A stretch of 64,000 nt of DNA from a virus (Duplodnaviria; Heunggongvirae; Uroviricota; Caudoviricetes): IMG/VR virus record IMGVR_UViG_3300032272_000001, positions 103,273 through 167,272 of that record. One strand, given 5' to 3'. Numbering within the stretch: the stretch's first letter is position 1; the number at the start of each line of letters is the position of its first letter. The notes under the pieces were generated by a model. It was not told the origin of the DNA and made no database searches. It worked only from the letters and a program-made list of their open reading frames with translations. Positions 11,719 through 32,517 of this stretch are shown here, one piece after another. Both the position numbers and the translations under genes were made by a program.

Positions 11719-11720
11719 TG

Positions 11721-16951: not shown

Positions 16952-17533
16952 ATGTCAGAATTTCATAGACACTCCAATGGTGGTGGATTAGTAGAGTCTA
17001 CTGCTAGTGTTGCTGATACTGCTTATATTGGACCTAATGCTGTAGTAGCTGGTAATGCTGTAGTAGAGGGCAATGCTATAGTAGATGGCAATGCTAAAGT
17101 ATTTGATAATGCTAGAGTAACTGGTCATGCTCTAGTATCTGGTAATGCTCAAATATTTGGTAATGCTCAATTATATGGTTATGCTATGGTATATGGTGAT
17201 GCTAAAGTATTTGATAAGGTTATAGTATCTGGTACTGCAAGAGTATTTGGTGATGCTGAAGTATATGATAATGCTGTAGTATCTGGTGATGCTGTAGTAT
17301 CTGGTGATGCTCTAGTATCAAAACCGTTTCCAAAAATTACTAGATCAGATGGATATGATTTTATTCTTGTACCAGATAAAGATGGTATTGATGTAATAAT
17401 TGCTGGTTGCAGATACTTTAGTATCGAAGAAGCAATTGAACATTGGACAGAAACAAGATATGGAACTAAATTAGGTGATGAAACTATGTTGATTATTGAA
17501 ACATTGCAGAAATTAAAGTCAATTATGGATTGA
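16952..17533 (+). CDS. Hexapeptide-repeat family paralog (193 aa)
   Basis: Same architecture. Confidence 0.75.
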   Translation: MSEFHRHSNGGGLVESTASVADTAYIGPNAVVAGNAVVEGNAIVDGNAKVFDNARVTGHALVSGNAQIFGNAQLYGYAMVYGDAKVFDKVIVSGTARVFGDAEVYDNAVVSGDAVVSGDALVSKPFPKITRSDGYDFILVPDKDGIDVIIAGCRYFSIEEAIEHWTETRYGTKLGDETMLIIETLQKLKSIMD

Positions 17534-17557
17534 CAACACCATAGATTGCTGTATGAT
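17530..17557 (+). promoter_or_regulatory. Early promoter module
   Basis: ttgacaacaccatagattgctgtatgat. Confidence 0.55.
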
Positions 17558-17585
17558 CCAGATATAGAAACAAAGGGAAAATGAT

Positions 17586-18221
17586 ATGTCAGGATTTCAT
17601 AGACATCCAAATGGTGGTGGTCTAGTAGAGTCTACTGCATATGTAGAAGATACTGCTTTTATTGGACCAGATGCTAGAGTAACTGGTGATGCTGAAGTAA
17701 CTGGTAATGCTCAAGTATTTGGTAATGCAAGAGTATCTGGTAATGCTAAAGTATTTGATAAGGTTATGGTATATGGTCATGCTTTAGTATCTGGTAATGC
17801 TATGGTATATGGTCATGCTTTAGTATCTGGTAATGCTATGATATCTGATAATGCTGAAGTATTTGATGATGCTAGAGTATATGGCTATGCTCATGTATTT
17901 GGTAATGCTCAAATATTTGGTAATGCTGTAATATTTGGTAATGTAAAAGTAGCTGGTAAAGCTGTAATATCTGGTAATGCAAGAGTATATGGTAATGCTG
18001 TAGTATCAAAACCATTTCCACGCATTCCTAGATCAGATGGATATGATTTTATTCTTGTACCTGATAAAGATGGTATTGATAGAATCATTGCTGGATGTAG
18101 ATATTTCACAGTCCCAGAAGCAATTGAACATTGGACAGAAACGAGATATGGAACCAAATTAGGAAGCGAGACTATGTTGATTATTGAAACATTGCAGAAA
18201 TTAAAGTCAATTATTGATTGA
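17586..18221 (+). CDS. Hexapeptide-repeat family paralog (211 aa)
   Basis: Same architecture. Confidence 0.75.
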   Translation: MSGFHRHPNGGGLVESTAYVEDTAFIGPDARVTGDAEVTGNAQVFGNARVSGNAKVFDKVMVYGHALVSGNAMVYGHALVSGNAMISDNAEVFDDARVYGYAHVFGNAQIFGNAVIFGNVKVAGKAVISGNARVYGNAVVSKPFPRIPRSDGYDFILVPDKDGIDRIIAGCRYFTVPEAIEHWTETRYGTKLGSETMLIIETLQKLKSIID

Positions 18222-18275
18222 CAACAACATAGAATCCACTATGATCAAGATATCAGATAACAAAGGGAACATACC

Positions 18276-18515
18276 ATGGATTTTGATGCTTTAAGAGAAT
18301 TAAAATCGGATTTGAATCATATTGTAACAAGATATGATCGTAAACAAGAAAATAAAAAATGTTATAATCATTATGCGCTTGGCATATATATGATTGCGGT
18401 TGATAATGCGATTAATGATATTGATAATGGTGCGAAGACAATTGATGCCATTAACAATAGATTCAATGACAGATTGCTTGCATTTATTTTGAAGAATTTA
18501 GATATAAAGGATTGA
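18276..18515 (+). CDS. hypothetical small protein (unrelated insert within the array)
   Basis: 79 aa; promoter module at 18228..18255. Confidence 0.5.
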   Translation: MDFDALRELKSDLNHIVTRYDRKQENKKCYNHYALGIYMIAVDNAINDIDNGAKTIDAINNRFNDRLLAFILKNLDIKD

Positions 18516-18521
18516 CATAAT

Positions 18522-19103
18522 ATGTCAGAATTTCATAAACATCCTAATGGTGGTGGATTAGTAGAGTCTACTGCAACAGTATCTGATACTGCTTATATTG
18601 GTCCTAATGCTGTAGTAGCTGGTAATGCTGCGGTACTTGGTAATGCTATAGTATCTAATAATGCTATAGTATCTAATAATGCAAGAGTATCTAATAATGC
18701 TCAAGTATATGGCGATGCTAAAGTGTCTGGTAATGCTCAAGTATTTGATAATGCTGAAGTATATGGTGATGCTCAAGTATTTGATAAGGTTATGGTATAT
18801 GGTACTGCTAGAGTATATGATAATGCTGTAGTATCTGGTAAAGCTGTAATATCTGGTGATGCTGTAGTATCTGGTGATGCTGTAGTATCAAAACCGTTTC
18901 CAAAAATTACTAGATCAGATGGATATGATTTTATTATTGTACCTGATTTATCTGGTAGTGATAGAATCATTGCTGGCTGTAGATATTTTAGTATCGAAGA
19001 AGCAATTGAACATTGGACAGAAACAAGATATGGAACTAAACTAGGCGATGAAACACTTGAAATTATTTCTATGCTACAGAAATTAAAGTCAATTATGGAT
19101 TGA
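18522..19103 (+). CDS. Hexapeptide-repeat family paralog (193 aa)
   Basis: Only a truncated upstream module survives here (ttgacataatATG). Confidence 0.75.
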   Translation: MSEFHKHPNGGGLVESTATVSDTAYIGPNAVVAGNAAVLGNAIVSNNAIVSNNARVSNNAQVYGDAKVSGNAQVFDNAEVYGDAQVFDKVMVYGTARVYDNAVVSGKAVISGDAVVSGDAVVSKPFPKITRSDGYDFIIVPDLSGSDRIIAGCRYFSIEEAIEHWTETRYGTKLGDETLEIISMLQKLKSIMD

Positions 19104-19158
19104 CATACCTCTAGAATCCACTATGATCAAGATATCAGATAACAAAGGAATAACTCAA

Positions 19159-19566
19159 ATGAAAAAATCAGATTTTGTTAGTGGTTTTATTGAGGCCGCA
19201 CTATGGTCATCTACATATGAACATGATGATTGCGAGGATTGTGTGGAAGGTTGTTGCAATCCCAATTGTGATGATGGCAAACATGAATTGTCACATAAAG
19301 CACGAAAAATGTTGACTGAGATTGCAGAAACATTTTTCGATAAGCACAATGCTCTATTCACTAATGATAATCTCATTCGACCATTAGTATGTTCTGTGTC
19401 CGAATACGCTGGCCATGATTTTTGGTTAACCAGCCAAGGACATGGTTGCGGGTTTTGGGATGGCGATTGGAATGAACCGGCTTCAACCATACTGACAGAG
19501 GCTAGCAAATGTGTAGGAGAAAAGCATTTTTATGTCAATTCTAATGGCGAATTTGATATAGAATAG
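19159..19566 (+). CDS. hypothetical Cys-rich protein (start at internal Met; the track ORF begins at 19123 inside the promoter)
   Basis: CEDCVEGCCNPNCDDGKHELSH motif; RBS aaaggaata. Confidence 0.5.
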   Translation: MKKSDFVSGFIEAALWSSTYEHDDCEDCVEGCCNPNCDDGKHELSHKARKMLTEIAETFFDKHNALFTNDNLIRPLVCSVSEYAGHDFWLTSQGHGCGFWDGDWNEPASTILTEASKCVGEKHFYVNSNGEFDIE

Positions 19567-19622
19567 TTGACATACATATAGAATCTGATATGATCCAGAT
19601 ATAGAAACAAAGGGAACATAAT

Positions 19623-20420
19623 ATGTCAGAATTTCATAAACATATCAATGGTGGTGGATTAGTAGAGTCTACTGCAACAGTTGCAGTATCTGCTTATATT
19701 GGACCTAATGCTAAAGTATTTGGTAATGCTAAAGTGTTTGGTTATGCTCTAGTATGTGATTATGCTGTAATATCTGGTGATGCTGTAATATCTGGTTATG
19801 CTAAAGTATATGATAATGCTGTAATATCTGGTGATGCTGTAGTATGTGATAATGCTAGAGTATCTGGCTATGCTCAAATATTTGGTAATGCTCAAGTATA
19901 TGGTAATGCTCTAGCATTTGATAAGGTTATGGTATATGGTGATGCAAGAGTATTTGGTAATGCTCAAGTATATGATGATGCTAGAGTATACAGCAATGCT
20001 AGAGTATCTGGTGATGCAAGAGTATTTGGTGATGCTGTAGTATTTGATAATGCTCTAGTATTTGATAAGGTTATGGTATATGGTACTGCAAGAGTATATG
20101 GTGATGCAAAAGTATATGATAATGCTATAGTAACTGGTAATGCTATAGTAACTGGTAATGCTATAGTATATGGCAATGTTCAAGTATCTGGTGATGCTAG
20201 AGTATCAAAACCATTTCCACAAATTAAAAGATCAGATAGATATGATTTCATTCTTGTGCCAGATAAAAATGGTACTGAAATAATAATTGCTGGTTGCAGA
20301 TACTTTACAGTTCCAGAAGCTATTGAACATTGGACAGAAACAAGAGGTGGAACCAAATTAGGTGATGAGACTATGCTGATTATCGAAACATTGCAGAAAT
20401 TAAAGTCAATTATTGATTGA
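19623..20420 (+). CDS. Hexapeptide-repeat family paralog (265 aa, the longest)
   Basis: About 28 repeats; promoter module at 19567..19594. Confidence 0.75.
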   Translation: MSEFHKHINGGGLVESTATVAVSAYIGPNAKVFGNAKVFGYALVCDYAVISGDAVISGYAKVYDNAVISGDAVVCDNARVSGYAQIFGNAQVYGNALAFDKVMVYGDARVFGNAQVYDDARVYSNARVSGDARVFGDAVVFDNALVFDKVMVYGTARVYGDAKVYDNAIVTGNAIVTGNAIVYGNVQVSGDARVSKPFPQIKRSDRYDFILVPDKNGTEIIIAGCRYFTVPEAIEHWTETRGGTKLGDETMLIIETLQKLKSIID

Positions 20421-20472
20421 CATCACTCTAGAATCTGATATAATCAAGATATAGAAACAAAGGGAACGTACA

Positions 20473-20673
20473 ATGTCTAATATGTCATACTGCCGTTGGG
20501 AAAATACCTCAAAAGATCTAATGGATTGTGTTGAAGATTTTGGAGAATTTGTTGAAGATGGCGGAACACTTGATGAATATCTTGAAAAGCTATCATCAAG
20601 CGAACGGCGCGCATTTAATAAGATCATAAACGAGTGTAATTTGTTTATGTCACTATACGAAGATTCTGAATAA
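20473..20673 (+). CDS. hypothetical small acidic protein
   Basis: 66 aa; promoter module at about 20417. Confidence 0.5.
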   Translation: MSNMSYCRWENTSKDLMDCVEDFGEFVEDGGTLDEYLEKLSSSERRAFNKIINECNLFMSLYEDSE

Positions 20674-20704
20674 ATATCGCCGCGTAACTATTCAAGGGGA
20701 TGTA

Positions 20705-21025
20705 ATGACTTGTATCTTGAAACCAATGATAAGAGATTTGAAAATACATGCAAAATACAATGGTATTAAGATCAATGAAACATCACTGAAAGGAGCGATT
20801 GCCTTTCTTGAGAAGAATGAATTGATTCATGCTCCAACATTATTTGTTTCTGATAATGGCGTTTTGACTTTACAGTGGGATAATAAGCAATTATATTTCA
20901 CAGTAGAGTTTAAGGATGATCAATTCACATATGATTGTCATGTTTATAATAGCAACATCAAAGGAACCGGAACTACTAGACGACTAGCAGATATCACGAA
21001 AATAGTCAAAACAATAAGGATATAA
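20705..21025 (+). CDS. hypothetical protein, third member of the small paralog family (14950, 15288)
   Basis: INETSLKGAIAFL...DNGVLTLQWDNKQLYF is similar to the two minus-strand paralogs. Confidence 0.5.
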   Translation: MTCILKPMIRDLKIHAKYNGIKINETSLKGAIAFLEKNELIHAPTLFVSDNGVLTLQWDNKQLYFTVEFKDDQFTYDCHVYNSNIKGTGTTRRLADITKIVKTIRI

Positions 21026-21249
21026 TGATGTTAGAGAAACAATATGTTACACATATTGATGAAGTTTCGTATAGGATAAGAGCAAATCCAGATGCGCTGC
21101 CGAGCCATACTGCGCAGTATGGCATTGTTCTGGAATATAAGAATGCTGATCAACAGGAATGGAATATCGGAATTTTCATTGAACCAGAAGCTATCAGTGA
21201 TATCATTGAAGCAATGGTTCTATTAATTGGCGATAAGAAAGAAAACTGA
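21025..21249 (+). CDS. hypothetical protein
   Basis: 74 aa; its ATG overlaps the upstream stop. Confidence 0.45.
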   Translation: MMLEKQYVTHIDEVSYRIRANPDALPSHTAQYGIVLEYKNADQQEWNIGIFIEPEAISDIIEAMVLLIGDKKEN

Positions 21250-21306
21250 TTGACATACCACTAGAATCTGCTATGATTAGATCATCGACAACAAAGGAAC
21301 ATTATT

Positions 21307-21648
21307 ATGAAGCCCATTAGTAAAGTTATCATGCTTTCAGATGAACGTAATGGTATCGCAGCACCGAAAAAAGCAATGGGTTGTATTGATTGGTCGGATA
21401 TCAATATCGTGAATCTTAAAGAAACACTTACCAAAGATATTCTTATTGTTTCTACGTTTAATATTAATTGCGATGGTGCTGATTCGGAATCGTATTGGGA
21501 ATCATGGCAGTATATTTGCGAGAATGCCGTTCTGGAATATAAACCAACCGGACAAAGATTCACTGTATATCAGGATGGTGATGTTTGGTTGATTGATCAG
21601 ACCGCAGTAGTTGGTATTGATCACGAATTGTGGGAATCTGACGATTAA
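21307..21648 (+). CDS. hypothetical protein
   Basis: 113 aa; promoter module at about 21247. Confidence 0.5.
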   Translation: MKPISKVIMLSDERNGIAAPKKAMGCIDWSDINIVNLKETLTKDILIVSTFNINCDGADSESYWESWQYICENAVLEYKPTGQRFTVYQDGDVWLIDQTAVVGIDHELWESDD

Positions 21649-21663
21649 ACCGAAAGGAATGAT

Positions 21664-21912
21664 GTGATGTTTGCAGTAATTCAATATGGATATAATATTT
21701 GTGGCGTTGGAGAAGATGAAGATTCTGCCTTAGAAATGGCTGCGGAATATTGTGATTTGCCAGATAACATAAAAACAATGCCAATGACAGATGGTGATAT
21801 TATTATCGTTGGAGCAACCAAAGAATTGTGTGATCATGTTATAAAATGTGGTGGTGATGTGAAATACACTATTAGTGGTGGTGTTGCTGATATTTGTTTG
21901 ACGCCAGAATAG
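21664..21912 (+). CDS. hypothetical protein
   Basis: 82 aa. Confidence 0.45.
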   Translation: MMFAVIQYGYNICGVGEDEDSALEMAAEYCDLPDNIKTMPMTDGDIIIVGATKELCDHVIKCGGDVKYTISGGVADICLTPE

Positions 21913-21952
21913 AATCTGCTATAATCAGAATATAGAAACAGAAAGAAACACA

Positions 21953-22375
21953 ATGTCTTATTGGTCAAATACAGGCAAATATCAAAAAGAATATTTCAAT
22001 TTTTATGATGAATTGGTTCCCTCTAGAGGAAAAGCAGAATTGCTTGGCGGGGAAATTTTGCGAGCCGTTTCTAAAATTTCATATGATTATTATAACAATG
22101 GGAGTTGCAATAATACGTCTGGGGCATGGAATTTTCTTAACGAATTTTTTATGTGTCGTGTTCCTGATAAAGATATGATAGAAGCGCTGAACTGCCTAGA
22201 TTCTATCAAACATATCGTCAACACTGGCGGATATTCTGATTTGACGGATAACCAAGAAGAAAAATTGAATCGTCTAACTGATCTTGTGGTTGAATTTATT
22301 ATGAATCATCCTGAAGCAAGATATTGTAATGATAGAGATATGTTTGATCTACAGGATGCAGATGATTGGATTTGA
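21953..22375 (+). CDS. hypothetical protein
   Basis: 140 aa. Confidence 0.5.
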   Translation: MSYWSNTGKYQKEYFNFYDELVPSRGKAELLGGEILRAVSKISYDYYNNGSCNNTSGAWNFLNEFFMCRVPDKDMIEALNCLDSIKHIVNTGGYSDLTDNQEEKLNRLTDLVVEFIMNHPEARYCNDRDMFDLQDADDWI

Positions 22376-22443
22376 AGTAATTATTGATTGACAACACCAT
22401 AGATTGTTATATGATAAAGATATAGAAACAAAAGGAACATGAT

Positions 22444-23025
22444 ATGTCAGAATTTCATAAACACTCCAATGGTGGTGGATTAGTAGAGTCTACTGCAACA
22501 GTATCTGATACTGCTTATATTGGACCTAATGCTAGAGTATCTGGCTATGCTCAAGTATTTGGTAATGCTAGAGTATCTGGTTATGCTAGAGTATTTGGTA
22601 ATGCTCTAGTATTTGGTAATGCTATAGTATCTGATGATGCTGTAGTATCTGGTACTGCTAGAGTATATGGTGATGCTCAAGTATATGATGATGCTATAGT
22701 ATGTGATGATGCAAGAGTATATGGTTATGCTGTAATATCTGGTTGTGCTCAAGTATATGGTAATGCTGTAATATCTGGCAATGCTAGAGTATATGGTGAT
22801 GCAAGAGTATCAAAACCGTTTCCACAAATTAAAAGATCAGATAGCTATGATTTTATTCTTGTACCAGATAAAGATGGTATTGATGTAATAATTGCTGGAT
22901 GTAGATATTTCACAGTCACAGCAGCAATTGGACATTGGACAGAAACAAGAGGTGGAACCAAATTAGGTGATGAAACCTTAAAAATTATTGATATGTTACA
23001 AGAATTAAAGTCAATTATGGATTGA
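22444..23025 (+). CDS. Hexapeptide-repeat family paralog (193 aa)
   Basis: Same architecture; promoter module at about 22387. Confidence 0.75.
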   Translation: MSEFHKHSNGGGLVESTATVSDTAYIGPNARVSGYAQVFGNARVSGYARVFGNALVFGNAIVSDDAVVSGTARVYGDAQVYDDAIVCDDARVYGYAVISGCAQVYGNAVISGNARVYGDARVSKPFPQIKRSDSYDFILVPDKDGIDVIIAGCRYFTVTAAIGHWTETRGGTKLGDETLKIIDMLQELKSIMD

Positions 23026-23080
23026 CAACACCATAGATTGCTGTATGATACAAGATATCAGATAACAAAGGAATGATACA

Positions 23081-23806
23081 ATGTCAGAATTTCATAACCA
23101 CTCCAATGGTGGTGGTCTTGTTGCAGATACTGCAAGAGTATCTGATACTGCTTATATTGGTCCATCTGCTAGAGTATTTGATAATGCTGTAGTATGTGAT
23201 AATGCTAAAGTATATGGTAATGCTGTAGTATTTGATTATGCTAAAGTATTTGATTATGCTAAAGTATATGGTAATGCTAAAGTATATGGTAATGCTGAAG
23301 TATTTGGTAATGCTCTAGTATGTGGTAATGCTGTAGTATATGGTAATGCTGTAGTATATGATAATGCTCAAGTATGTGATCATGTAAGAGTATCTGGTCA
23401 TGCAAGAGTATATGGTAATGCTGTAGTATACAGCAATGCTGCATTATCTGATAATGCTCTAGTATTTGGTAATGCTCAAGTATGTGATCATGCTAGAGTA
23501 TATGGTAATGCTATAGTATGTGATAATGCAAGAGTATTTGATAATGCAAGAGTATCTGGTAATGCTGTAGTATCTGGTGATGTAAGAGTATCAAAACCAT
23601 TTCCACAAATTAAAAGATCAGATAGATATGATTTTATTCTTGTGCCAGATAAAAATGGAGTCGATAGAATCATTGCTGGTTGCAGGTATTTCACAGTCCC
23701 AGAAGCAATTGGACATTGGACAAAAACAAGATATGGAACTAAATTAGGTGATGAAACACTTGAAATTATTTCTATGCTACAGAAATTAAAGTCAATTATG
23801 GATTGA
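23081..23806 (+). CDS. Hexapeptide-repeat family paralog (241 aa)
   Basis: Same architecture; promoter module at about 23024. Confidence 0.75.
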   Translation: MSEFHNHSNGGGLVADTARVSDTAYIGPSARVFDNAVVCDNAKVYGNAVVFDYAKVFDYAKVYGNAKVYGNAEVFGNALVCGNAVVYGNAVVYDNAQVCDHVRVSGHARVYGNAVVYSNAALSDNALVFGNAQVCDHARVYGNAIVCDNARVFDNARVSGNAVVSGDVRVSKPFPQIKRSDRYDFILVPDKNGVDRIIAGCRYFTVPEAIGHWTKTRYGTKLGDETLEIISMLQKLKSIMD

Positions 23807-23861
23807 CAACACCATAGATTGCTGTATGATACAAGATATCAAACAACAGAGGAATGATGTA

Positions 23862-24386
23862 ATGAACAAAATTGAAGACGCTCCAATCGATACTCCACTT
23901 CTTGTGTGGGTAAATGATTTTGGACCTCATAAAAAGCCGTGTGGTTGGATGAGTGGATGTTGTCTTGAAAATGTAAATGGTGATAGGCGATTGGTCGCGA
24001 ACGGGCTTCTTGGTGATTGGGATATCTCAACATGGCATGAATACCCAGACGATCCAAGCAAAGAAGAAAAAACCAAAAAACCAGTCGATATTCATGTATG
24101 GGTTAAGCATATCGAAAATAAAATCAATGAATACAATGAAGAATGTGGTTATAATTGGAAGATTTTTTTGAAGGTATTGAGCGGAAGAAAATACCATAAG
24201 ATCGTGACTGGGCGCGTGGGTACTGGCGATAGTAGTGTTTATTGCTTTGTTGAAAAGGAAACAGGCGATATCTACAAATCAGCATCATATAAAGCTCCGG
24301 CAAAGCATGTCAGAGGCAACATAGCCGATCATGATGGCGGTTGGGGATCATGCCTAAATTCTTATGGTGCTGCCTATTTGAGATAG
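23862..24386 (+). CDS. hypothetical protein (start at internal Met; the track ORF begins at 23826 inside the promoter)
   Basis: 174 aa; promoter module at about 23797. Confidence 0.5.
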   Translation: MNKIEDAPIDTPLLVWVNDFGPHKKPCGWMSGCCLENVNGDRRLVANGLLGDWDISTWHEYPDDPSKEEKTKKPVDIHVWVKHIENKINEYNEECGYNWKIFLKVLSGRKYHKIVTGRVGTGDSSVYCFVEKETGDIYKSASYKAPAKHVRGNIADHDGGWGSCLNSYGAAYLR

Positions 24387-24446
24387 GTGTTGACAACAAC
24401 ATAGAATCTGCTATGTTCAGAATATAGAAACACAGAGGAACACACA

Positions 24447-24704
24447 ATGGCTAAGAAAACTGATCTTGAATTTATTACAGATGGTTATTATGTTACTCTG
24501 TTCGCCAATACAGAAGGCGGTGAATATATTTGGAATGAAATCGCAGAAGCATTCGATGGCTATGCTAGATTTCCTGATCATATGTTTGCAAGCATCAAAT
24601 ACCAAATCAAAAAAGCTGGATATACTATCCGCCAATCACGTAAACCAAGTGAAAATAGCATCAAAAAATTGATGGAAGACTTAGAAAAAAGTAGATTGGT
24701 ATAA
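24447..24704 (+). CDS. hypothetical protein
   Basis: 85 aa; promoter ttgacaacaacatagaatctgctatgtt upstream. Confidence 0.5.
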   Translation: MAKKTDLEFITDGYYVTLFANTEGGEYIWNEIAEAFDGYARFPDHMFASIKYQIKKAGYTIRQSRKPSENSIKKLMEDLEKSRLV

Positions 24705-24708
24705 TAGA

Positions 24709-25017
24709 ATGAACACCTTAGTTAAAAATATGCGCAAAAAAGTTGAAGAGCTTGAAGACAAAATCATCGAACATCGATTAAAAATTACTGATATCTATAG
24801 AGAGATTGAAAACCTAGAAGAATTGATTGACGAACAGGAAGATGTTAATCACAAACGATGGTGGTTATTTTCTGGCGCTACAAAAAACAATCCTAATAAT
24901 TATGTTTTTATTGATAGCTATGAAACTTATGATGAACTCATTCAAGCCAAAAAAACCATTGATTGTTGTTGGTTTGACGTGTATGATAATGAAAAGTTTT
25001 CGATGGATAGAATTTAA
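24709..25017 (+). CDS. hypothetical coiled-coil protein
   Basis: 102 aa with a heptad-like EEL/EDK-rich N-terminus. Confidence 0.45.
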   Translation: MNTLVKNMRKKVEELEDKIIEHRLKITDIYREIENLEELIDEQEDVNHKRWWLFSGATKNNPNNYVFIDSYETYDELIQAKKTIDCCWFDVYDNEKFSMDRI

Positions 25018-25035
25018 TAACCAAAGGAATATATT

Positions 25036-25434
25036 ATGTCAGTACAAAAACTATTTGAAGATGCCATTATTCCTGTTATTGAACAAGGAGGACCGTCATA
25101 TTTTAGGGTATTTATCAATTCATGCAGATACCGTGGTCCTAATGGAAGAAAATGTGCTATCGGTCATTTGATTCCAGACGAACTATATAATGAAAAAATT
25201 GAAGACAAAAGGGCATTTATGCTGCCTGCTAATATTAAAAATTATATCATATTAAAATATGATTTGGAAGATGAAGATATTATTGATTATGTTCAAAAGA
25301 TTCATGATGACTTGACTAATAATAATAATGAAATCATTCATGATAATGTTTTCTTACATGATTTCATCAAAAAAGCATATGAAGGCTGTAAAAATCATAA
25401 CGTAAATCCATCATTTTTAGACAAATACACTTGA
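25036..25434 (+). CDS. hypothetical protein
   Basis: 132 aa. Confidence 0.5.
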   Translation: MSVQKLFEDAIIPVIEQGGPSYFRVFINSCRYRGPNGRKCAIGHLIPDELYNEKIEDKRAFMLPANIKNYIILKYDLEDEDIIDYVQKIHDDLTNNNNEIIHDNVFLHDFIKKAYEGCKNHNVNPSFLDKYT

Positions 25435-25467
25435 CATACATGTAGATTCATCTAAGATATAATTATC
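25411..25467 (+). repeat. 57-bp perfect direct repeat, copy 1 (contains an early promoter ttgacatacatgtagattcatctaagatataat)
   Basis: Identical to 25921..25977. Confidence 0.8.
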
Positions 25468-25487
25468 AAAACAAATGGACCATTCAA

Positions 25488-25745
25488 ATGACGAAACATG
25501 TTGATATTGAGGTTGAATTTGATGTGGATGTTGAAGCGGTAGACGATTTCGTGCGTTTTGCGGCGAATTGTAGGATTTTCGCGAAAGTTCATCGAATTCA
25601 CGGTTCCGAAATTCCTGTTGTCACGTTGCGCGCATCGCCCGAAAAATTGATTGACTTTTCGATAAACGTTTGGCGTGTTAATGCCGATGGCGACAAATCG
25701 CGCGCAGTAGATTTTTGCGCGATACATCCGCTTCGATCCCGTTAG
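25488..25745 (+). CDS. hypothetical protein inside the repeat-bracketed GC-richer cassette
   Basis: 85 aa. The local GC is clearly higher than in the flanks (many gcgcg/cgcc runs). Confidence 0.45.
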   Translation: MTKHVDIEVEFDVDVEAVDDFVRFAANCRIFAKVHRIHGSEIPVVTLRASPEKLIDFSINVWRVNADGDKSRAVDFCAIHPLRSR

Positions 25746-25920
25746 TGGAAGCGCAAAAGTATTTTAATCACAAAAGAAATGGTCCGTGTGACTGTTTCTT
25801 TTAAAAGGACCAAAGTCTAATTGGAGGGAAGACCTCTAGAAAAGTATCTAAGCAGAGATAGGTTTAAAACTTGAATCACATCCATGATTGAAACTTATTT
25901 TTGTTGCAATGTCTTTCCAT

Positions 25921-25977
25921 TTTAGACAAATACACTTGACATACATGTAGATTCATCTAAGATATAATTATCAAAAC
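25921..25977 (+). repeat. 57-bp perfect direct repeat, copy 2 (promoter for 25991..26359)
   Basis: Identical to 25411..25467. Confidence 0.8.
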
Positions 25978-25990
25978 AGAGGAACATACA

Positions 25991-26359
25991 ATGTACACAG
26001 TAATGACAGCAAAAACACCAACACAACGCCGCAATGCAGTAAATCTATCAAATGCTTCTGGTAATGTTAGACGATCATTAGCATTTAAAGATGAAGGTTT
26101 AAATGGGCCGATTGAATCTGAATTGAATAAAGGTGGATTGGTTTCTGCTATTAAAGAAGCATTAGAAACTAATCGCGTTAAGCGAGTATCTATTGCTATT
26201 GTTGATACTGATATCGGCACGGCGGTTTGGGTTTCTCCATTGAATATGGACCAATCATATAAAGTCGATTTTGTTATGGATTATATTGGTTTTAAAACAC
26301 CAAACGGATTTCATTGGTATCTGTTAGATGATATGAAAAAAGAAGGGTTTTCGCTATGA
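25991..26359 (+). CDS. hypothetical protein
   Basis: 122 aa. Confidence 0.5.
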   Translation: MYTVMTAKTPTQRRNAVNLSNASGNVRRSLAFKDEGLNGPIESELNKGGLVSAIKEALETNRVKRVSIAIVDTDIGTAVWVSPLNMDQSYKVDFVMDYIGFKTPNGFHWYLLDDMKKEGFSL

Positions 26360-26547
26360 ACGAATCATTTGAATTAGAAAGGAAGATTGACGAACTATGG
26401 TTTGCAGCAAATATTCATAGTTTGGAAATGATGGGTGAATTTGTTGATCATGAAATTGATCATGGAACAGAAAAAGTACCAGATCGACCAAAAGATAAAA
26501 TCGAAACGATTCAAAAAATCATTCAATATCTAAAGGAATCTATCTAA
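26356..26547 (+). CDS. hypothetical small protein
   Basis: 63 aa; ATGA overlap. Confidence 0.45.
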   Translation: MNESFELERKIDELWFAANIHSLEMMGEFVDHEIDHGTEKVPDRPKDKIETIQKIIQYLKESI

Positions 26548-26762
26548 TGGGTAAAATTTCAGAAAATTGTGCAGACGATATCATTAGAACAAGTGTGGGA
26601 ACAACCAACATTCCACATCCTAGTAAAGACGGCATGAGAATTGTTGGTTGGGTTGTTCCTGAAAAGGAAGCTCAGCTTAGCGTTGGTTTAATCGCCCTAG
26701 ATGATATTGCAGAATGTTGGAAAAAATCAAGAAAACCAAAATATTTTAGAGACAATTATTGA
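26547..26762 (+). CDS. hypothetical small protein
   Basis: 71 aa. Confidence 0.45.
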   Translation: MGKISENCADDIIRTSVGTTNIPHPSKDGMRIVGWVVPEKEAQLSVGLIALDDIAECWKKSRKPKYFRDNY

Positions 26763-26834
26763 TTGACAACACCATTATGTATAACAAACTTCCTGCTAAA
26801 GGCGCTCCACTTTAATCCAATTTATGGAAAGATC

Positions 26835-27044
26835 ATGACAAAAAAAGTTTATTTAGTAGATACATCATATGGTCAAACTATCAGATGCTATGATGAAAAA
26901 AATCATTACGAACAATGTTGTTATGAAATTGGTAATGAAAACATTGTTCGTATTAGTTTGGCAACTATAGCTGATATATCTTGGACTATAGCTATGGGAG
27001 GAAGAGTCCCAATAGAAGCACAAAAAATGTATGATGAAAGATAA
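26835..27044 (+). CDS. hypothetical small protein (start at internal Met, after the promoter module at 26763)
   Basis: MTKKVYLVDTSYGQTIRCYDEKNHYEQCCYEIG... Confidence 0.45.
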   Translation: MTKKVYLVDTSYGQTIRCYDEKNHYEQCCYEIGNENIVRISLATIADISWTIAMGGRVPIEAQKMYDER

Positions 27045-27056
27045 CAGGAAAATAAA

Positions 27057-27236
27057 ATGATCAAGAGTGTTGCTTATATCACATATATTGTGGTATATCT
27101 TTTAGTTATGTTATCGTCTAATTGGTTTTACGAATTTGATTCTGAGGCGGTAACGATTAGATTATCTGTGTTTTGTGGTATTTTACTTGGTATAATTGTG
27201 GCAGAATATATTAATTGGGTTTTAAAACATGATTGA
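27057..27236 (+). CDS. small membrane protein (59 aa, under the track cutoff)
   Basis: Manual translation MIKSVAYITYIVVYLLVMLSSNWFYEFDSEAVTIRLSVFCGILLGIIVAEYINWVLKHD. Confidence 0.4.
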   Translation: MIKSVAYITYIVVYLLVMLSSNWFYEFDSEAVTIRLSVFCGILLGIIVAEYINWVLKHD

Positions 27237-27432
27237 TGCTGCTACAGTAGAGTTTAAGGATCATTTATTGGTTGTTTCTTTTTATAAGAGCGGACCAATA
27301 AATGATATTAAATGTGAACCGTTCGCATATGAATTGGACGATGTTGATGTGACATATAAACATCTAAAAGAAAAATTTGGTCGAGAATATATCAATGAAG
27401 TTATTGATGATGCCATTTATTATCTTGATTGA
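27229..27432 (+). CDS. hypothetical small protein
   Basis: 67 aa. Confidence 0.45.
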   Translation: MIDAATVEFKDHLLVVSFYKSGPINDIKCEPFAYELDDVDVTYKHLKEKFGREYINEVIDDAIYYLD

Positions 27433-27448
27433 TTGAAAGGAACATAAT

Positions 27449-28192
27449 ATGATAGGATTTCATAAACATCCAAATGGTGGTGGTCTAGTAGAGTCTACTG
27501 CAACTGTTGCAGATACTGCTTTTATTGGACCAGATGCTGTAGTATCTGGTAATGCTCAAGTATATGATAATGCTCAAGTATTTGGTGATGCTCAAGTATT
27601 TGGTGATGCTCTAGTATCTGGTAATGCTAGAGTATCTGGCTATGCTAGAATATATGATACTGCTCTAGTATCTGGTACTGCTCTAGTATCTGGCTATGCT
27701 AGAATATATGGTAATGCTGTAGTATCTGGTACTGCTCTAGTATATGGCAATGCTATAGTATCTAATAATGCAAGAGTGACTGGTGATGCTGTAGTATGTG
27801 GTGATGCTCAAGTATATGATAATGCTCAAGTATCTGGTGATGCTATAGTATATGGTTATGCTCATGTATTTGGTGATGCTAGAGTATCTGGTAATGTAAG
27901 AGTATCTGGTGATGCTCAAGTATTTGGTAATGCTATGGTATTTGGTAATGCTAGAGTAGCTGGTAATGCTGTAGTATCAAAACCATTTCCAAAAATTACT
28001 AGATCAGATAGCTATGATTTTATTCTTGTACCTGATAAAGATGGTATTGATAGAATCATTGCTGGTTGCAGATATTTCACGGTTCCAGAAGCAATTGGAC
28101 ATTGGACTAGGACAAGAGGTGGTACTAAATTAGGAACCGAAACCTTAAAAATTATTGATATGTTACAAGAATTAAAGTCAATTATTGATTGA
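27449..28192 (+). CDS. Hexapeptide-repeat family paralog (247 aa)
   Basis: Same architecture. Confidence 0.75.
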   Translation: MIGFHKHPNGGGLVESTATVADTAFIGPDAVVSGNAQVYDNAQVFGDAQVFGDALVSGNARVSGYARIYDTALVSGTALVSGYARIYGNAVVSGTALVYGNAIVSNNARVTGDAVVCGDAQVYDNAQVSGDAIVYGYAHVFGDARVSGNVRVSGDAQVFGNAMVFGNARVAGNAVVSKPFPKITRSDSYDFILVPDKDGIDRIIAGCRYFTVPEAIGHWTRTRGGTKLGTETLKIIDMLQELKSIID

Positions 28193-28240
28193 CAAGAAAC
28201 CACAATATAGTATGATCAAGACATCAGAACAAAGGATATC

Positions 28241-28477
28241 GTGATGTATAAAGCATTCTATACTGAAAATACCATCATTCCTACAGTCTATGATATAGGA
28301 ACTTTTTGTACTCTTGAAACTGCTGCGGAGGAATGTGTAAAACACGCAACAAAACATAAACGATATGATCATATCGTTGCATATGAATTTGAAGAAGACG
28401 GTAGCGGTTATGATATGGCAGCTGCGATTGGTGGTGATATCAGAATTTACACTGTGAATAGGAAATATAATGTATAG
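28241..28477 (+). CDS. hypothetical protein
   Basis: 78 aa; promoter module at about 28190. Confidence 0.5.
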   Translation: MMYKAFYTENTIIPTVYDIGTFCTLETAAEECVKHATKHKRYDHIVAYEFEEDGSGYDMAAAIGGDIRIYTVNRKYNV

Positions 28478-28892
28478 AGCATATTTTCGAATGATTGGAT
28501 TTAATGTTGAATTAGATATTGGGGTGTTCAATAAGTTTGGAGAAGCTGTTGATAAATGTGTTGTTCATGCTAAAGAAAACAAATATTTCGAAAGAATCAT
28601 TAAAGACTATTACACAAAAGATGAATATCATTTATTAGTAATAAATGATGGTTATTTAATATTGTATGCAATAGTTGAAACAGAAGGAAAAGAAACAAAA
28701 ATGACTGATGAAGAACATGTACAAAGAATCAAAGACGCCATTGATATTCTTGTCGATGCTACTGATGCTGCCATGGCGGCTGGGCTTATGATAGATTATT
28801 TTGTAAATTCAAATCACAAAATACAAGACGAAAAAAGTAATTTGACTGCATTAGTGAAACCAACGATTAATGTATCAAGATCTTACACATAA
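28470..28892 (+). CDS. hypothetical protein
   Basis: 140 aa. Confidence 0.5.
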   Translation: MYRAYFRMIGFNVELDIGVFNKFGEAVDKCVVHAKENKYFERIIKDYYTKDEYHLLVINDGYLILYAIVETEGKETKMTDEEHVQRIKDAIDILVDATDAAMAAGLMIDYFVNSNHKIQDEKSNLTALVKPTINVSRSYT

Positions 28893-28925
28893 TATTACCT
28901 TAATGGTTCTGTAGATCAATAAAAA

Positions 28926-29006
28926 GGAAGAGATGGCAAATGGGGAGCCCCACAGCTCATAACTGTGTGTTTAAAAACCGAGTTGGTTCGATTCCGACCT
29001 CTTCTA
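28926..29006 (+). tRNA. Probable tRNA-Met/fMet (CAT) with an unusually long (about 14 nt) variable region; CCA encoded
   Basis: Acceptor ggaagag/ctcttct, anticodon arm cacag-ctCATaa-ctgtg, T-arm gttgg-ttcgatt-ccgac, then a-cca. The variable-loop length is atypical. Confidence 0.5.
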
Positions 29007-29013
29007 CCATTAT

Positions 29014-29086
29014 AGTTCCATAGCTCAGCGGAAAGAGCAATTGTCTTCTAAACAATAGGTCGTAGGTTCAAATCCTACTGGAACTA
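29014..29086 (+). tRNA. tRNA-Arg (anticodon TCT); CCA encoded
   Basis: Acceptor agttcca/tggaact, D-arm gctcagcggaaagagc, anticodon arm attgt-ctTCTaa-acaat, T-arm gtagg-ttcaaat-cctac, discriminator a, then cca. Confidence 0.75.
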
Positions 29087-29108
29087 CCAAACAACAAAGG
29101 AACATATC

Positions 29109-29318
29109 ATGAAAAAAAATGACTATCACGTAAAGGCGAAGGTTACTGTAGAAGTAGAAATGTGTGTTGTTGCTGAAAGTCGTAATGACGCAAAAAGAAT
29201 TGTTGATGATCATATCATAATGACAGCAATTCTTATTGATGTACCATCAAAAGAATATGATGTGTATGAAGACACTATTTCAGATGTTGATTATAGGGGT
29301 ATTGAACCAATCAGTTAG
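29109..29318 (+). CDS. hypothetical small protein
   Basis: 69 aa; RBS aaaggaac. Confidence 0.5.
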   Translation: MKKNDYHVKAKVTVEVEMCVVAESRNDAKRIVDDHIIMTAILIDVPSKEYDVYEDTISDVDYRGIEPIS

Positions 29319-29327
29319 GAGTATTAC

Positions 29328-29501
29328 ATGTATGAAATTGTGTATTCTCATAGTGATCGAGAACCAGACACAAAAAAGACAATAAACAAAGCTAAACAAA
29401 AAGCAGAAAGGATTAATGAACCAGCTGCAATTAGGTCTCCAATGGGATATATAGTTGCTATATATTTTGGTGCTGATGTTGGTTGGATAACAATTCATTA
29501 A
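29328..29501 (+). CDS. hypothetical small protein (57 aa, under the track cutoff)
   Basis: Manual translation MYEIVYSHSDREPDTKKTINKAKQKAERINEPAAIRSPMGYIVAIYFGADVGWITIH. Confidence 0.35.
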   Translation: MYEIVYSHSDREPDTKKTINKAKQKAERINEPAAIRSPMGYIVAIYFGADVGWITIH

Positions 29502-29513
29502 AATTATTATTAT

Positions 29514-29688
29514 GAGACACTTTTTTAATTTTATGGTTATGTTTATGTTGTTTTTTATTATGTGCATAGTGATAAGTATGCACACCACAATCAATAATCA
29601 TATTAATACGCTAAAGAATGATAAGATGACTATGCAAGAAATAAATGAAGAAGAGCAAGAAAAAGCTCTTGCAAAGAAAGTTGAATAA
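29514..29688 (+). CDS. small membrane protein (57 aa, under the track cutoff)
   Basis: Manual translation MRHFFNFMVMFMLFFIMCIVISMHTTINNHINTLKNDKMTMQEINEEEQEKALAKKVE. Confidence 0.35.
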
Positions 29689-29785
29689 ATGAAACCAGAA
29701 CCAATTACATTATATGAAGTGTTGTTTTGGATAACATTAATTATTCTTGCTGGTTTATATGCTTTTACAAGAACAGGAACATAAT

Positions 29786-30493
29786 ATGATAGGATTTCAT
29801 AAACATCCAAATGGTGGTGGTCTAGTAGAGTCTACTGCAACTGTTGCAGATACTGCTTTTATTGGACCTAATGCTAGAGTATATGGTAATGCTCAAGTAT
29901 TAGGTTATGCTCAAGTATCTGGCAATGCTAAAGTATTTGATAATGCTAGAGTATTTGATAATGCTGTAATATTTGGTGATGCTCAAGTATGTGATCATGC
30001 AAGAGTATATGGCAATGCTGTAGTACATGGTGATGCTCTAGTATATGTTAATGCTATAGTATGTGATCATGCAAGAGTATCTGGTAATACTCATGTATAT
30101 GGTAATGCTCATGTGTATGATAATGCTGCATTATCTGATAATGCTCTAGTATATGGAAATGCTCAAGTATGTGATAATGCAAGAGTATATGATAATGCTC
30201 AAGTATTTGGTGATGCTATAGTATGTGATAATGCAAGAGTATCTGGTAATGCAAGAGTATATGGTAATGCTGTAGTGTCAAAACCATTTCCAAAAATCAC
30301 TAGATCAGATAGATATGATTTCATTCTTGTACCTGATAAAGATGGTATTGATAGAATCATTGCTGGTTGTAGATATTTTACAGTTCCAGAAGCTATTGAA
30401 CATTGGACAAAAACAAGATATGGAACTAGTTTAGGCAATGAGACTTTAATCATTATTAGAACATTACAAGAATTAAAGTCAATTATGGATTGA
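29786..30493 (+). CDS. Hexapeptide-repeat family paralog (236 aa, counted from the conserved MIGFHKHPNGGG start)
   Basis: The track ORF begins upstream at 29747. The conserved family N-terminus and RBS point to 29786. Confidence 0.75.
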   Translation: MIGFHKHPNGGGLVESTATVADTAFIGPNARVYGNAQVLGYAQVSGNAKVFDNARVFDNAVIFGDAQVCDHARVYGNAVVHGDALVYVNAIVCDHARVSGNTHVYGNAHVYDNAALSDNALVYGNAQVCDNARVYDNAQVFGDAIVCDNARVSGNARVYGNAVVSKPFPKITRSDRYDFILVPDKDGIDRIIAGCRYFTVPEAIEHWTKTRYGTSLGNETLIIIRTLQELKSIMD

Positions 30494-30544
30494 CAGCAAC
30501 ATAGATTGCTGTCAATCCATATATAGAAACAAAGGGAACATAAT

Positions 30545-31252
30545 ATGACAGAATTTCATAAACATCCTAATGGTGGTGGATTAGTAGAATCTACTGCTAG
30601 TGTTGCTGATACTGCTTTTATTGGAATTAATGCTAGAGTATATGGTAATGCTAGAGTATCTGGTGATGCTATAGTATCTGGCTATGCTCAAATATTTGGT
30701 GATACTAGAGTATATGGTGATGCTAAAGTATGTGATCATGCAAGAGTATATGGAAATGCTAAAGTATGTGATAATGCTATAGTATATGGTCATGCTCATG
30801 TATATGATAATGCTGTAGTATCTGGTTATGCTGTAGTATCTGGTTATGCTCAAGTATCTGATGATGCTCAAGTATTTGGTCATTCTAGCGTATCTGGTAA
30901 TGCTCTAGTATTTGGTCATTCTAGAGTATATGATGATGCAAGAGTATCTGGTACTGCTCTAGTATCTGGTACTGCTCTAGTATATGGTGATGCAAGAGTA
31001 TCTGGTGATGTAAGTGTATATGGTGATGCTAAAGTATCAAAACCGTTTCCACAAATTAAAAGATCAGATGGATATGATTTTATTATTGTACCAGAGTTAT
31101 CAGGTAATGATAGAATAATTGCTGGTTGCAGATATTTCACAGTCCCAGAAGCTATTGAACATTGGACAGAAACAAGAGGTGGAACCAAATTAGGTGATGA
31201 GACTATGCTGATTATCGAAACACTTCAACGAATGAAAGAGATTTATGGATGA
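30545..31252 (+). CDS. Hexapeptide-repeat family paralog (235 aa)
   Basis: Same architecture; C-term ends ...LQRMKEIYG. Promoter module at about 30490. Confidence 0.75.
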   Translation: MTEFHKHPNGGGLVESTASVADTAFIGINARVYGNARVSGDAIVSGYAQIFGDTRVYGDAKVCDHARVYGNAKVCDNAIVYGHAHVYDNAVVSGYAVVSGYAQVSDDAQVFGHSSVSGNALVFGHSRVYDDARVSGTALVSGTALVYGDARVSGDVSVYGDAKVSKPFPQIKRSDGYDFIIVPELSGNDRIIAGCRYFTVPEAIEHWTETRGGTKLGDETMLIIETLQRMKEIYG

Positions 31253-31536
31253 ATGTATTGTTAATGGATCGTATAATTAGTGGTGAATTTAGAGAACCAG
31301 GTTTTGATCCAAATCAGGTTCAGATTTATGACTATTATAAAAGAGTAGTCATTCGAGATTTTAATATTACTCCAACGACGGATAACCCGTTACGTATAGT
31401 TTGGATTAAACAATATGTCACTGAATATGGAGGAAATGAATATGGATTAGCACTTAAAGAAGCAGAAAAAGCGTGTTTTCTAATTAAAACACATTATATG
31501 ATTATGGTTTATAACAAAGAGGTAAAAAATGTTTAA
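31249..31536 (+). CDS. hypothetical protein
   Basis: 95 aa; ATGA overlap. Confidence 0.5.
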   Translation: MNVLLMDRIISGEFREPGFDPNQVQIYDYYKRVVIRDFNITPTTDNPLRIVWIKQYVTEYGGNEYGLALKEAEKACFLIKTHYMIMVYNKEVKNV

Positions 31537-32479
31537 TATGAAACGTCTGGGAATCATCTCAGCACTAATTGCATCTATTGGACTAGCAGGTTGCAGCGGC
31601 GAGTATGCAGAAGTGCCGCTTGCTTATGTGGGTAAGATTAAAACAAAGGATGGTATTAAGCCAGGCTTGATTAATCCATCACAGTTCCGTCTACCACTAT
31701 GTTGGTACTATTGTGATAAATTGTTACTTGCAGAAACTTCAGACTTCAAAAGTAAAGAATCATTCCGTGGTAAGAATAACTCCCTATATATGCCAAAGTC
31801 TGATTTGATGATGGAATTCGATGTTCGAGGAACATTTGCTGTTGCCCGCGATGATCAGCGTCTTGAACGTGTGTTCGCAAACATTCCGGTAGAAGCAACG
31901 GACTTTCCTGGTTCATCTGGCGTAATTACTGCGGATAACATCTATAAGACCTACGCTGTACCGATTATTCGTGATGTAGTTAGGAGAGTGGTGGTAAATT
32001 ATAGCATAACGGAAATCAATTCAAATCGAGCTATCGCGAACGCGGTACTGAATAGAGAATTGCTAAAAGAATTTAAGTCAGGTAAAATACCAATCGATAT
32101 TAAACGCTTTGGTCTTGCTGATATTAGATTTCCACCAATGATCGTTCAGCAAAAGCAAGTCGCCGCTGAACGTAGGATTGCAATTGAACAGGAAGAAGCT
32201 AATAAGCAAGTTGCTTTGGTCAAGCTTGAAACTGAACTTGAAACCGCTAAAGCCAAACGCGCTATTAAACGAGAATTGGCGCAAGCTGCGGCAGAAGAGA
32301 ATAAAATTCTTGCTGACTCTGTAACACCTAAGTATCTTGCTTATAAGGATCGTGAGATTCTTGAGAAGTTAACTACAAGCAATAACACAAAATGGATCTC
32401 GCCTGATATTCTAGGCACCATGGCAGGTAAAATTGCAGTAGGTAATGGAATTGGTAATGAACATCGACGGAAACATTAA
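31529..32479 (+). CDS. SPFH/band-7 (prohibitin/HflC-like) domain lipoprotein
   Basis: Signal peptide with lipobox LAGC at residues 20-23, then an SPFH-like core and a coiled-coil (QEEANKQVALVKLETELETAKAKRAIKRELAQAAAEENK). Confidence 0.55.
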   Translation: MFNMKRLGIISALIASIGLAGCSGEYAEVPLAYVGKIKTKDGIKPGLINPSQFRLPLCWYYCDKLLLAETSDFKSKESFRGKNNSLYMPKSDLMMEFDVRGTFAVARDDQRLERVFANIPVEATDFPGSSGVITADNIYKTYAVPIIRDVVRRVVVNYSITEINSNRAIANAVLNRELLKEFKSGKIPIDIKRFGLADIRFPPMIVQQKQVAAERRIAIEQEEANKQVALVKLETELETAKAKRAIKRELAQAAAEENKILADSVTPKYLAYKDREILEKLTTSNNTKWISPDILGTMAGKIAVGNGIGNEHRRKH

Positions 32480-32491: not shown

Positions 32492-32517
32492 TTGAGGTCG
32501 CAATTTGCGACCTCAAC
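32492..32517 (+). terminator. Stem-loop terminator candidate (ttgaggtcgcaa-tt-tgcgacctcaa)
   Basis: 12-bp perfect stem after the SPFH gene. The T-tract is weak. Confidence 0.4.

Follow-up and report, generated by a model that had tools for sequence, protein, structure and literature searches.

A duplicated promoter segment around ORF85

We examined a locus in the early region of a 64,000-nt stretch of phage DNA (the window; positions 103,273 to 167,272 of IMG/VR virus record IMGVR_UViG_3300032272_000001), in which an 85-residue open reading frame (ORF) of foreign composition, ORF85, lies between two identical copies of a 59-nt direct repeat, R. All features of the locus are on the + strand. 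Gene A (25036..25434) encodes a 132-residue protein that matches phrog_17693 (2.6e-17) and ends within R copy 1 (25415..25473). It is followed by a leader (25474..25487), ORF85 (25488..25745), a non-coding tail (25746..25919), R copy 2 (25920..25978), a second leader (25979..25990) and gene C (25991..26359), whose product is a 122-residue ORFan of native composition. Judging from window ORFs at 49.7-56.3 kb that match the T4 baseplate proteins gp6, a gp7-like wedge protein and gp8, the source phage is an uncultured T4-like myovirus. Its gp6 homologue is ~34% identical to those of the closest isolates, Caulobacter phage Cr30, Sinorhizobium phages phiM12/phiN3 and Pelagibacter phage HTVC008M, and no close relative of the phage was found in any collection searched.

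R is an exact repeat (TTTTAGACAAATACACTTGACATACATGTAGATTCATCTAAGATATAATTATCAAAACA) with a start-to-start distance of 505 nt, and a 59-nt match is not attainable by chance in 64 kb. Perfect direct repeats had already been noticed in an earlier, sequence-only reading of the window, which described them as 57 bp long and starting at 25411 and 25921; the repeats are there, whereas their length is 59 nt and their starts are 25415 and 25920 (the string quoted at the time is 55 nt long and is found at 25419 and 25924). Another ~20 exact repeats, 50-94 nt long, occur in the window, all of them within a paralogous family of beta-solenoid genes and its promoters, and the R pair is the sole exact repeat in this size range that is unlinked to paralogous genes. 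No further copy of R or of the insert is present in the 64-kb window or in an additional 6.9 kb of the genome.

The anatomy of R is that of a gene end fused to a promoter. The first 16 nt of R and a TGA located within the -35 hexamer make up the last 7 codons and the stop codon of gene A. In copy 1 the -35 element (TTGACA, 25431-25436) thus overlaps the gene A stop and is followed by a -10 element (TAAGAT, 25453-25458), and the equivalent elements of copy 2 are found at 25936-25941 and 25958-25963. The reading frame that ends at the TGA of copy 2 is closed by a stop codon shortly upstream. Since the first 16 nt of R correspond to conserved C-terminal codons of gene A, copy 2 carries a displaced fragment of that gene, and the repeat is a true segmental duplication. 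The genome also encodes a paralog of gene A, on the same contig and 45% identical, and the C-terminus of gene A (PSFLDKYT) aligns with that of the paralog (FSFLNEKE); because this homology extends through the codons in question, copy 1 occupies the native left context. To the left of R, the two contexts share zero similarity, with a sharp break inside the gene A coding sequence. To the right, both copies run on as diverged but alignable leaders. Copy 2, after 59 identical bases, enters an intact family leader (GAGGAACATACAATG) and then gene C; this native leader has an intact Shine-Dalgarno (SD) sequence (GAGGAACATACA before the ATG) and is close to the leader found at 24429-24449. The leader of ORF85, which reads AATGGACCATTCAAATG when the ATG is included, is a native, family-type 5' untranslated region with a damaged SD (consensus AAGGGAACATAATATG).

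A promoter scan identified the promoter in R as sigma70-type (TTGACA-N16-TAAGAT). The more general pattern TTGACA-N16-TAnRAT matches 15 times in the window, against 0.43 matches expected by chance, and all of these sites are on the + strand within 12.5 kb (15690-28216). The family has a mean column identity of 72% over ~80 nt, and its members share a TAGAwT spacer motif (TAGATT in R copy 1), the stop codon (TGA) of the upstream gene embedded in the -35 element and a conserved leader (...AACAAAGGGAACATAATATG). Most copies also have a 7-bp AT-rich hairpin (GTCAATT-atg-GATTGAC) over the -35 element, as exemplified by the sites at 23022-23049 and 23803-23830. The invariant spacer motif hints at a binding site for an additional regulator. 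The two copies of R belong to this family as identical, functional-looking early promoters, predicted to be active. Exact patches of 50-94 nt are common to other promoter and gene-end regions of the genome and indicate that recombination or conversion among its promoters is active.

ORF85 deviates from its surroundings by every compositional measure that we applied. Its GC content is 45.7%, compared with 33.9% for the whole window (placing it in the top 0.5% of 258-nt windows) and 29-36% for its neighbours, and its 30 CpG sites correspond to an observed/expected (o/e) ratio of 2.29, the highest in 64 kb, against 0.65 for the window. CGCG and GCGC sites are enriched ~20-fold. The codon score relative to phage usage is -0.23, below all 57 long native ORFs (mean 0.28, s.d. 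0.17, minimum -0.19); GC at third codon positions is 0.42 versus 0.20 in native genes, and ORF85 favours the GCG, CGN, TCG and ACG codons that the phage avoids. Among 40 early-region genes it has the top GC content, the top CpG ratio and the lowest, and sole negative, codon score. The maximum-likelihood anomalous segment spans 25488-25754, beginning at the ATG and ending 9 nt beyond the stop codon, with a log-likelihood ratio of 49.8 compared with at most 13.2 elsewhere. The foreign-looking DNA is therefore the coding sequence itself, preceded by a native promoter and leader and followed by a tail of native composition. The sequence-only reading had given the same bounds and length for the ORF and had remarked on its many CGCG and GCGC runs, both of which agree with the ORF listing and the site counts. 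It had also described the entire stretch between the repeats as GC-richer, and windowed GC and codon usage confirm this for ORF85 only; the leader is of native type and the tail has a GC content of 34.5% and a CpG o/e ratio of 0.39.

Adjacent tRNA-Met (CAT) and tRNA-Arg (TCT) genes lie in the early region at 28926-29089 (+); AGA is the dominant arginine codon of the phage and is used zero times in ORF85.

We discarded ORF length as evidence of coding, because 35% of dinucleotide-preserving shuffles of the segment are open over 86 codons or more and the antisense strand has an open stretch of 96 codons, and used a test of 3-base periodicity instead. The sense frame of ORF85 is periodic (chi2 20.9, p=0.002; 0.2% of shuffles), to a degree similar to that of neighbouring genes, and G occupies codon position 1 in 42% of its codons compared with 18% in the antisense frame. 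A 91-residue antisense ORF was rejected on account of its poor codon score, a predicted isoelectric point of 11.2, its low G at position 1, and the lack of any family match or record. These data indicate that ORF85 is probably a real protein-coding gene. Its 85-residue product has a balanced composition and an isoelectric point of 6.0, and no alternative-start version of it is on record.

The product has no detectable relatives. No homologue was found in Pfam, PHROGs, NCBIfam, PADLOC or PDB sequences, by tblastn against phages, or by peptide-pattern scans of IMG/VR, GTDB genomes and JGI metagenomes. In a word-indexed search of 5.8 billion clusters ORF85 matched itself alone, and an index-free HMMER search of 1.84 billion representatives returned ORF85 and four internally repetitive proteins, which we rejected as homologues because their scores reflect one short motif multiplied 5-8 times. 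ORF85 is a strict ORFan, with no homologue in ~15 billion proteins. A single-sequence AlphaFold model has a modest mean confidence (pLDDT 58.9) and a beta-alpha-beta4 topology; the KH-like fold suggested by Foldseek against the PDB was dismissed as meaningless (best E 0.1, TM ~0.4). At the nucleotide level, neither the locus nor the insert had a match among 50,697 phage records and 72,556 plasmids using megablast and sensitive blastn. The R core was not found by exact scans of IMG/VR and JGI metagenomes, nor a 30-mer from the CpG-rich core by exact scans of GTDB genomes, and scanning genes A and C in IMG/VR did not uncover a close relative of the phage. Gene C, like ORF85, matches itself alone in the 5.8 billion clusters, and the closest non-self relatives of gene A are at most 45% identical.

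The tail contains stop codons in all frames and lacks 3-base periodicity (p=0.5), in agreement with its earlier description as non-coding, although it is 174 nt rather than 175 nt long. Neither a paralog in the window nor a match in the phage and plasmid collections was found for it, and Rfam at E<=10 yielded only sub-threshold chance matches. The BLAST-type comparisons proposed in the sequence-only reading for the protein and for the non-coding segment were run, and produced neither a homologue of ORF85 nor a match to the tail. For the whole tail, the folding z-score is -3.3 (+ strand) and +0.2 (- strand); as 9% of 117 phage windows of equal size reach z<=-3, we rejected a structured non-coding RNA as unsupported. 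A discrete hairpin of 13 bp is nevertheless present at 25772..25802 (AAAAGAAAUGGUC-cgugu-GACUGUUUCUUUU), 27 nt past the ORF85 stop codon and accompanied by an A-tract and a U-tract. It is AT-rich, with a free energy of -12.2 kcal/mol (z=-2.8; 3/200 shuffles are equally good), and is not called by a consensus terminator scan. This hairpin resembles a weak intrinsic terminator. The sequence at the joint between R copy 1 and the insert, AAATGGACC (25473-25481), recurs with 1 mismatch (AAATGGTCC) at 25777-25785 in the 5' arm of the hairpin; no other short direct repeat was found near either end of the foreign coding sequence, and this one probably reflects chance.

Origin of the cassette

We consider it slightly better than an even chance that the locus represents an early-gene cassette, made of R, a native-type leader, a foreign ORFan coding sequence and a tail with a weak hairpin, which came to lie between genes A and C through a duplicative recombination that copied R. 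Such an event would have copied the 59-nt segment comprising the 3' end of gene A and the early promoter, so that ORF85 and gene C would each have ended up behind an identical sigma70-type early promoter. The right joint, between the -10 element and the SD, would be a homologous crossover of the type described for the PeSL (promoter-early stem-loop) motifs of T4-type phages. The left joint, 16 nt upstream of the -35 element and inside the gene A coding sequence, would be illegitimate. On the most parsimonious account, this one-sided homologous event would have proceeded by a route such as copy-choice or homology-facilitated illegitimate recombination: the exchange would exit the recipient between the -10 element and the SD, copy the leader, ORF85 and the tail off a donor cassette belonging to that promoter family, and re-enter the recipient 59 nt upstream of the point of exit, thereby duplicating the end of gene A and the promoter.

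The presence of a gene A fragment in copy 2 and the abrupt left edge imply that a pure homologous exchange between promoters is insufficient and that at least one illegitimate joint is needed. Insertion by promoter-repeat recombination alone, as put forward in the sequence-only reading, leaves the left joint unexplained, since R includes 16 nt of the coding end of gene A. The freshly acquired moron or mobile cassette envisaged in that reading is upheld insofar as a foreign ORF sits between two promoters; it did not import a promoter of its own, the two copies being those of the resident one. We infer both the recombination mechanism and the recency of the event, the latter, like its direction, from the perfect identity of the R copies and the unameliorated composition of the coding sequence. 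The cassette is real and probably recent. Perfect identity of the flanks as the mark of a very recent event, which had also been claimed, is likely but unproven, because gene conversion could maintain identity.

Several observations weigh against this reconstruction. Neither an empty site nor a donor was seen in the collections searched, and a single sequence underlies the deduced direction and recency. The open frame of ORF85 is not, by itself, significant evidence of a gene; its SD is weak or damaged, and one of three annotation pipelines (JGI, not ENA or Logan) calls it, the atypical codons and the weak SD plausibly explaining why the others missed it. The compositional edges (25488/25754) differ from the repeat edges (25473/25474 and 25919/25920), so that acquisition of the coding sequence and duplication of R may have been two separate events. 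Finally, R has no significant stem-loop: R and its flanks fold like shuffled sequences (z=-0.4 and -0.9), which sets it apart from the PeSL motifs.

The offset between the two sets of edges also fits an alternative that we regard as unlikely, though by no means negligible, according to which the original R already stood in front of ORF85 and its tail as an older resident cassette, and the recent event did no more than copy the 59-nt segment to a position just upstream of the gene C SD. There it would restore strong early transcription of gene C downstream of the tail hairpin. The ORF85 leader, native in type yet degraded, suggests some residence time and is compatible with this scenario, as are the native composition of the tail, the hairpin between ORF85 and copy 2 and the intact family SD that gene C retains directly past copy 2. 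Long residence is difficult to reconcile with a coding sequence devoid of amelioration, which has a CpG o/e ratio of 2.29 and the lowest codon score of the region; moreover, the tail hairpin is weak, and inserting 59 nt on their own requires two illegitimate joints where duplicative recombination requires one. We judge it improbable that R, ORF85 and the tail form an active, self-contained mobile cassette, in which recombination between the two R copies would release a 505-bp mini-circle, with one promoter, ORF85 and the tail on it, able to re-insert at family promoters of co-infecting phages; if this were true, the locus would be a promoter-borne gene shuttle without a stem-loop, in a T4-like lineage far from the PeSL phages. 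It is a little more improbable still that two old and different family promoters around a resident gene were homogenised over 59 nt by gene conversion, in which case their identity would be silent on the arrival of ORF85. Conversion does operate in this genome, as shown by the exact patches that promoters and gene ends elsewhere in it share, and the diverged, alignable leaders into which both copies continue rightward are what the edge of a conversion tract would look like. Conversion needs homology on both sides, however, and here the tract takes in 16 nt of the gene A coding end and the left edge of copy 2 is abrupt, without flanking similarity.

An assembly artefact, or collapsed variants, would account for the locus if a path R-B-R (B, the insert) had been built from a mixed population, for instance of A-R-C genomes and a separate R-B molecule or mini-circle. 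The contig is indeed metagenome-assembled, a 59-nt repeat falls within the k-mer range of assemblers, ORF85 is recorded in the JGI annotation and absent from the ENA and Logan gene calls, and a k=31 graph cannot separate A-R-B-R-C from A-R-C plus a circular R-B. Against this, two independent assemblies of the phage, a JGI metagenome contig of 176,134 nt that contains the window and a MEGAHIT (k141) ENA contig of 176,125 nt, are 9 nt apart, which would not fit the absence of a 505-nt cassette from either, and the ENA contig is 100% identical to the window across the comparable 5,589 nt. The final k of the ENA assembly, 141 according to the contig name, exceeds 59 and demands real k-mers spanning the A-R-B and B-R-C joints. 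In addition, two Logan contigs (k=31) of run SRR9045818 both stop precisely 30 nt inside R, one coming from the gene A side and the other from the gene C side. Breaks on both sides mean that two left and two right contexts of the repeat are present in the reads, and as a de Bruijn graph breaks in this manner only at such repeats, the duplication of R is not peculiar to one assembler. A foreign fragment would also not be expected to gain phage-specific flanks on both sides by chance, and we hold an artefact to be very unlikely.

A site-specific or transposable mini-element, such as an integron cassette, a miniature inverted-repeat transposable element (MITE) or a small integrative element, seems to us scarcely credible. 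R would then either serve as an att-like core or be a target-site duplication, produced by a recombinase provided in trans. As a direct repeat containing a gene 3' end, R is reminiscent of the attL and attR sites of elements that integrate at such ends, and the insert finishes in a non-coding segment with some predicted structure. The 446-nt insert encodes no recombinase, and the fold of the tail is unexceptional for the genome. Integron-type GTTRRRY/RYYYAAC core sites are missing from the boundaries: RYYYAAC is absent from 25380-26010, and the sole GTTRRRY, at 25512, is inside the ORF. There are no terminal inverted repeats: whichever of three ways the element is delimited, its ends share no exact inverted match longer than 5 nt. 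At 59 bp, R is far longer than known target-site duplications. That neither the insert nor the R pair recurs elsewhere in the window or in the additional 6.9 kb argues further against such an element.

The surrounding early region

The region around the cassette is populated by small accessory genes, including those for the anti-defence protein ArdA, a pentapeptide-repeat protein and a Tad6-like protein. In view of this neighbourhood, ORF85 would be expressed as an early accessory protein, possibly involved in host takeover or anti-defence, and it is a possibility that it constitutes a newly captured factor of either kind. With no detectable relatives and with ArdA, pentapeptide-repeat and Tad6-like genes in its region, ORF85 could reasonably be included, at low priority, in screens for anti-defence function.

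The ArdA antirestriction homologue (12509-13018, -) and the pentapeptide-repeat protein (9481-10236, -) are encoded in an opposite-strand block at 10-14 kb with a GC content of 38-40%, and TTGACT-type promoter-like sites are found at 11010 and 14399 in this ArdA block. The minus-strand block 9481-13018 looks like an anti-defence module. A gp32 gene and the gene for the Tad6-like anti-defence protein are located at ~2246-4731 of the window. Further left, outside the window (ENA contig k141_5634585, 51470-58354), are genes for SpoVR, DUF444, an SNase-like nuclease, a gp33-like late-transcription coactivator and the 157-residue paralog of gene A; SpoVR and DUF444 are auxiliary genes of stress/sporulation type.

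The family of gene A (phrog_17693), represented by two paralogs in this genome, is characterised by an invariant C-x-Y-R-G-x-x-G-x-K-C-x-x-G-x-L-I-x-D motif and a Q..HD motif. This Cys/His pattern may correspond to a metal-binding or nuclease-like fold.

The beta-solenoid family mentioned above comprises ~14 paralogs of the YdcK-type beta-solenoid/hexapeptide-repeat class (PF18836, PF00132; phrog_7964, phrog_5070; three members were tested against Pfam), whose DNA has an 18-nt period. They occupy 15748-31252 (+), with members at 16226-16897, 16952-17533, 17586-18221, 18522-19103, 19623-20420, 22444-23025, 23081-23806, 27449-28192, 29759-30493 and 30545-31252, among others, and, in the case of three copies, 7011-8742 (-). 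These genes are nearly free of CpG (o/e 0-0.3) and have the best codon scores of the region, and a tandem family of this size is unusual in a T4-like phage. The location of the 50-94-nt exact patches at the gene ends and promoters of this family suggests ongoing gene conversion.

A second compositional outlier of the early region, at 31529-32479 (+), has a GC content of 0.40, a CpG o/e ratio of 1.09 and a codon score of 0.03. It encodes an SPFH/Band 7 domain protein with a lipoprotein signal, is followed by a GC-rich hairpin (GAGGTCGCAAtttGCGACCTC) at 32495-32515, and may be another horizontally acquired accessory gene.

Comparison with known systems

If the duplicative origin that we favour is correct, the locus offers a clean snapshot of accessory-gene gain by T4-like phages, in which a foreign coding sequence was fitted precisely behind a native promoter and leader while the resident promoter was duplicated, so that the downstream gene C keeps its expression. 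The PeSL idea would then extend to a very distant, uncultured T4-like branch, the stem-loop would not be essential and an illegitimate joint could take part. The evidence comes from one metagenomic sequence, and what it contributes is one more instance rather than a novel principle.

PeSLs are conserved motifs of ~100 bp, consisting of an upstream stop codon, a strong early promoter and a stem-loop followed by an SD and an ATG, which concentrate upstream of ORFans in the hyperplastic regions of T4-type phages; through recombination between PeSLs, genes are lost, gained or exchanged and mini-circles are released, the crossovers having been mapped between the -10 element and the SD/ATG (Arbiol et al. 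2010, PMC2839356; Comeau et al. 2014, PMC4122927). The present locus is likewise found in a hyperplastic region of small early ORFans of a T4-like myovirus. The R family has predicted strong sigma70-like -35 and -10 elements (TTGACA-N16-TAAGAT in R itself), spans the intergenic interval from the upstream stop to the SD/ATG, lies upstream of ORFans and is present in many conserved copies (15 in 12.5 kb). ORF85 sits directly between two motifs, as does the RB49 ORFan192, and the identity of the R copies ends on the right between the -10 element and the SD, where PeSL crossovers were mapped. Apart from lacking a stem-loop in R (the nearest clear hairpin, 25772-25802, is in the tail, 117 nt upstream of copy 2), the locus differs in that the R copies are 100% identical, include a coding fragment of the upstream gene and have a non-homologous left joint, whereas PeSL pairs are similar but distinct family members. 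The phage is also very distant from those in which PeSLs were defined (gp6 ~34% identical to the closest isolates), and the PeSLs of Arbiol and Comeau are backed by sister genomes or mini-circles, whereas this cassette is known from one sequence.

Morons of lambdoid phages are defined by comparison with relatives that lack the gene (Hendrix et al. 2000, summarised in PMC3594210 and PMC2839356). ORF85 resembles them as a single additional ORFan between resident genes, with a promoter in front, a hairpin behind and a deviant GC content (45.7% versus 29-36% in its neighbours). It departs from them because its promoter and leader are native, the former a duplicate of the resident promoter rather than an import, and because its candidate terminator is weak and located in DNA of native composition. 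It is furthermore co-oriented with its neighbours, in a lytic T4-like phage rather than a prophage.

Homology-facilitated illegitimate recombination, or copy-choice, is a general mechanism for the capture of foreign DNA that was defined in transformable bacteria. The cassette shares with its products one homologous joint, at the promoter and leader, one non-homologous joint, and foreign DNA flanked by a short duplication of the recipient, the difference being that here the mechanism is deduced only from the structure of the junctions in one phage genome. We would class the locus as a new, distant instance of the acquisition of promoter-associated cassettes by T4-like phages, a known principle to which it adds a further case.

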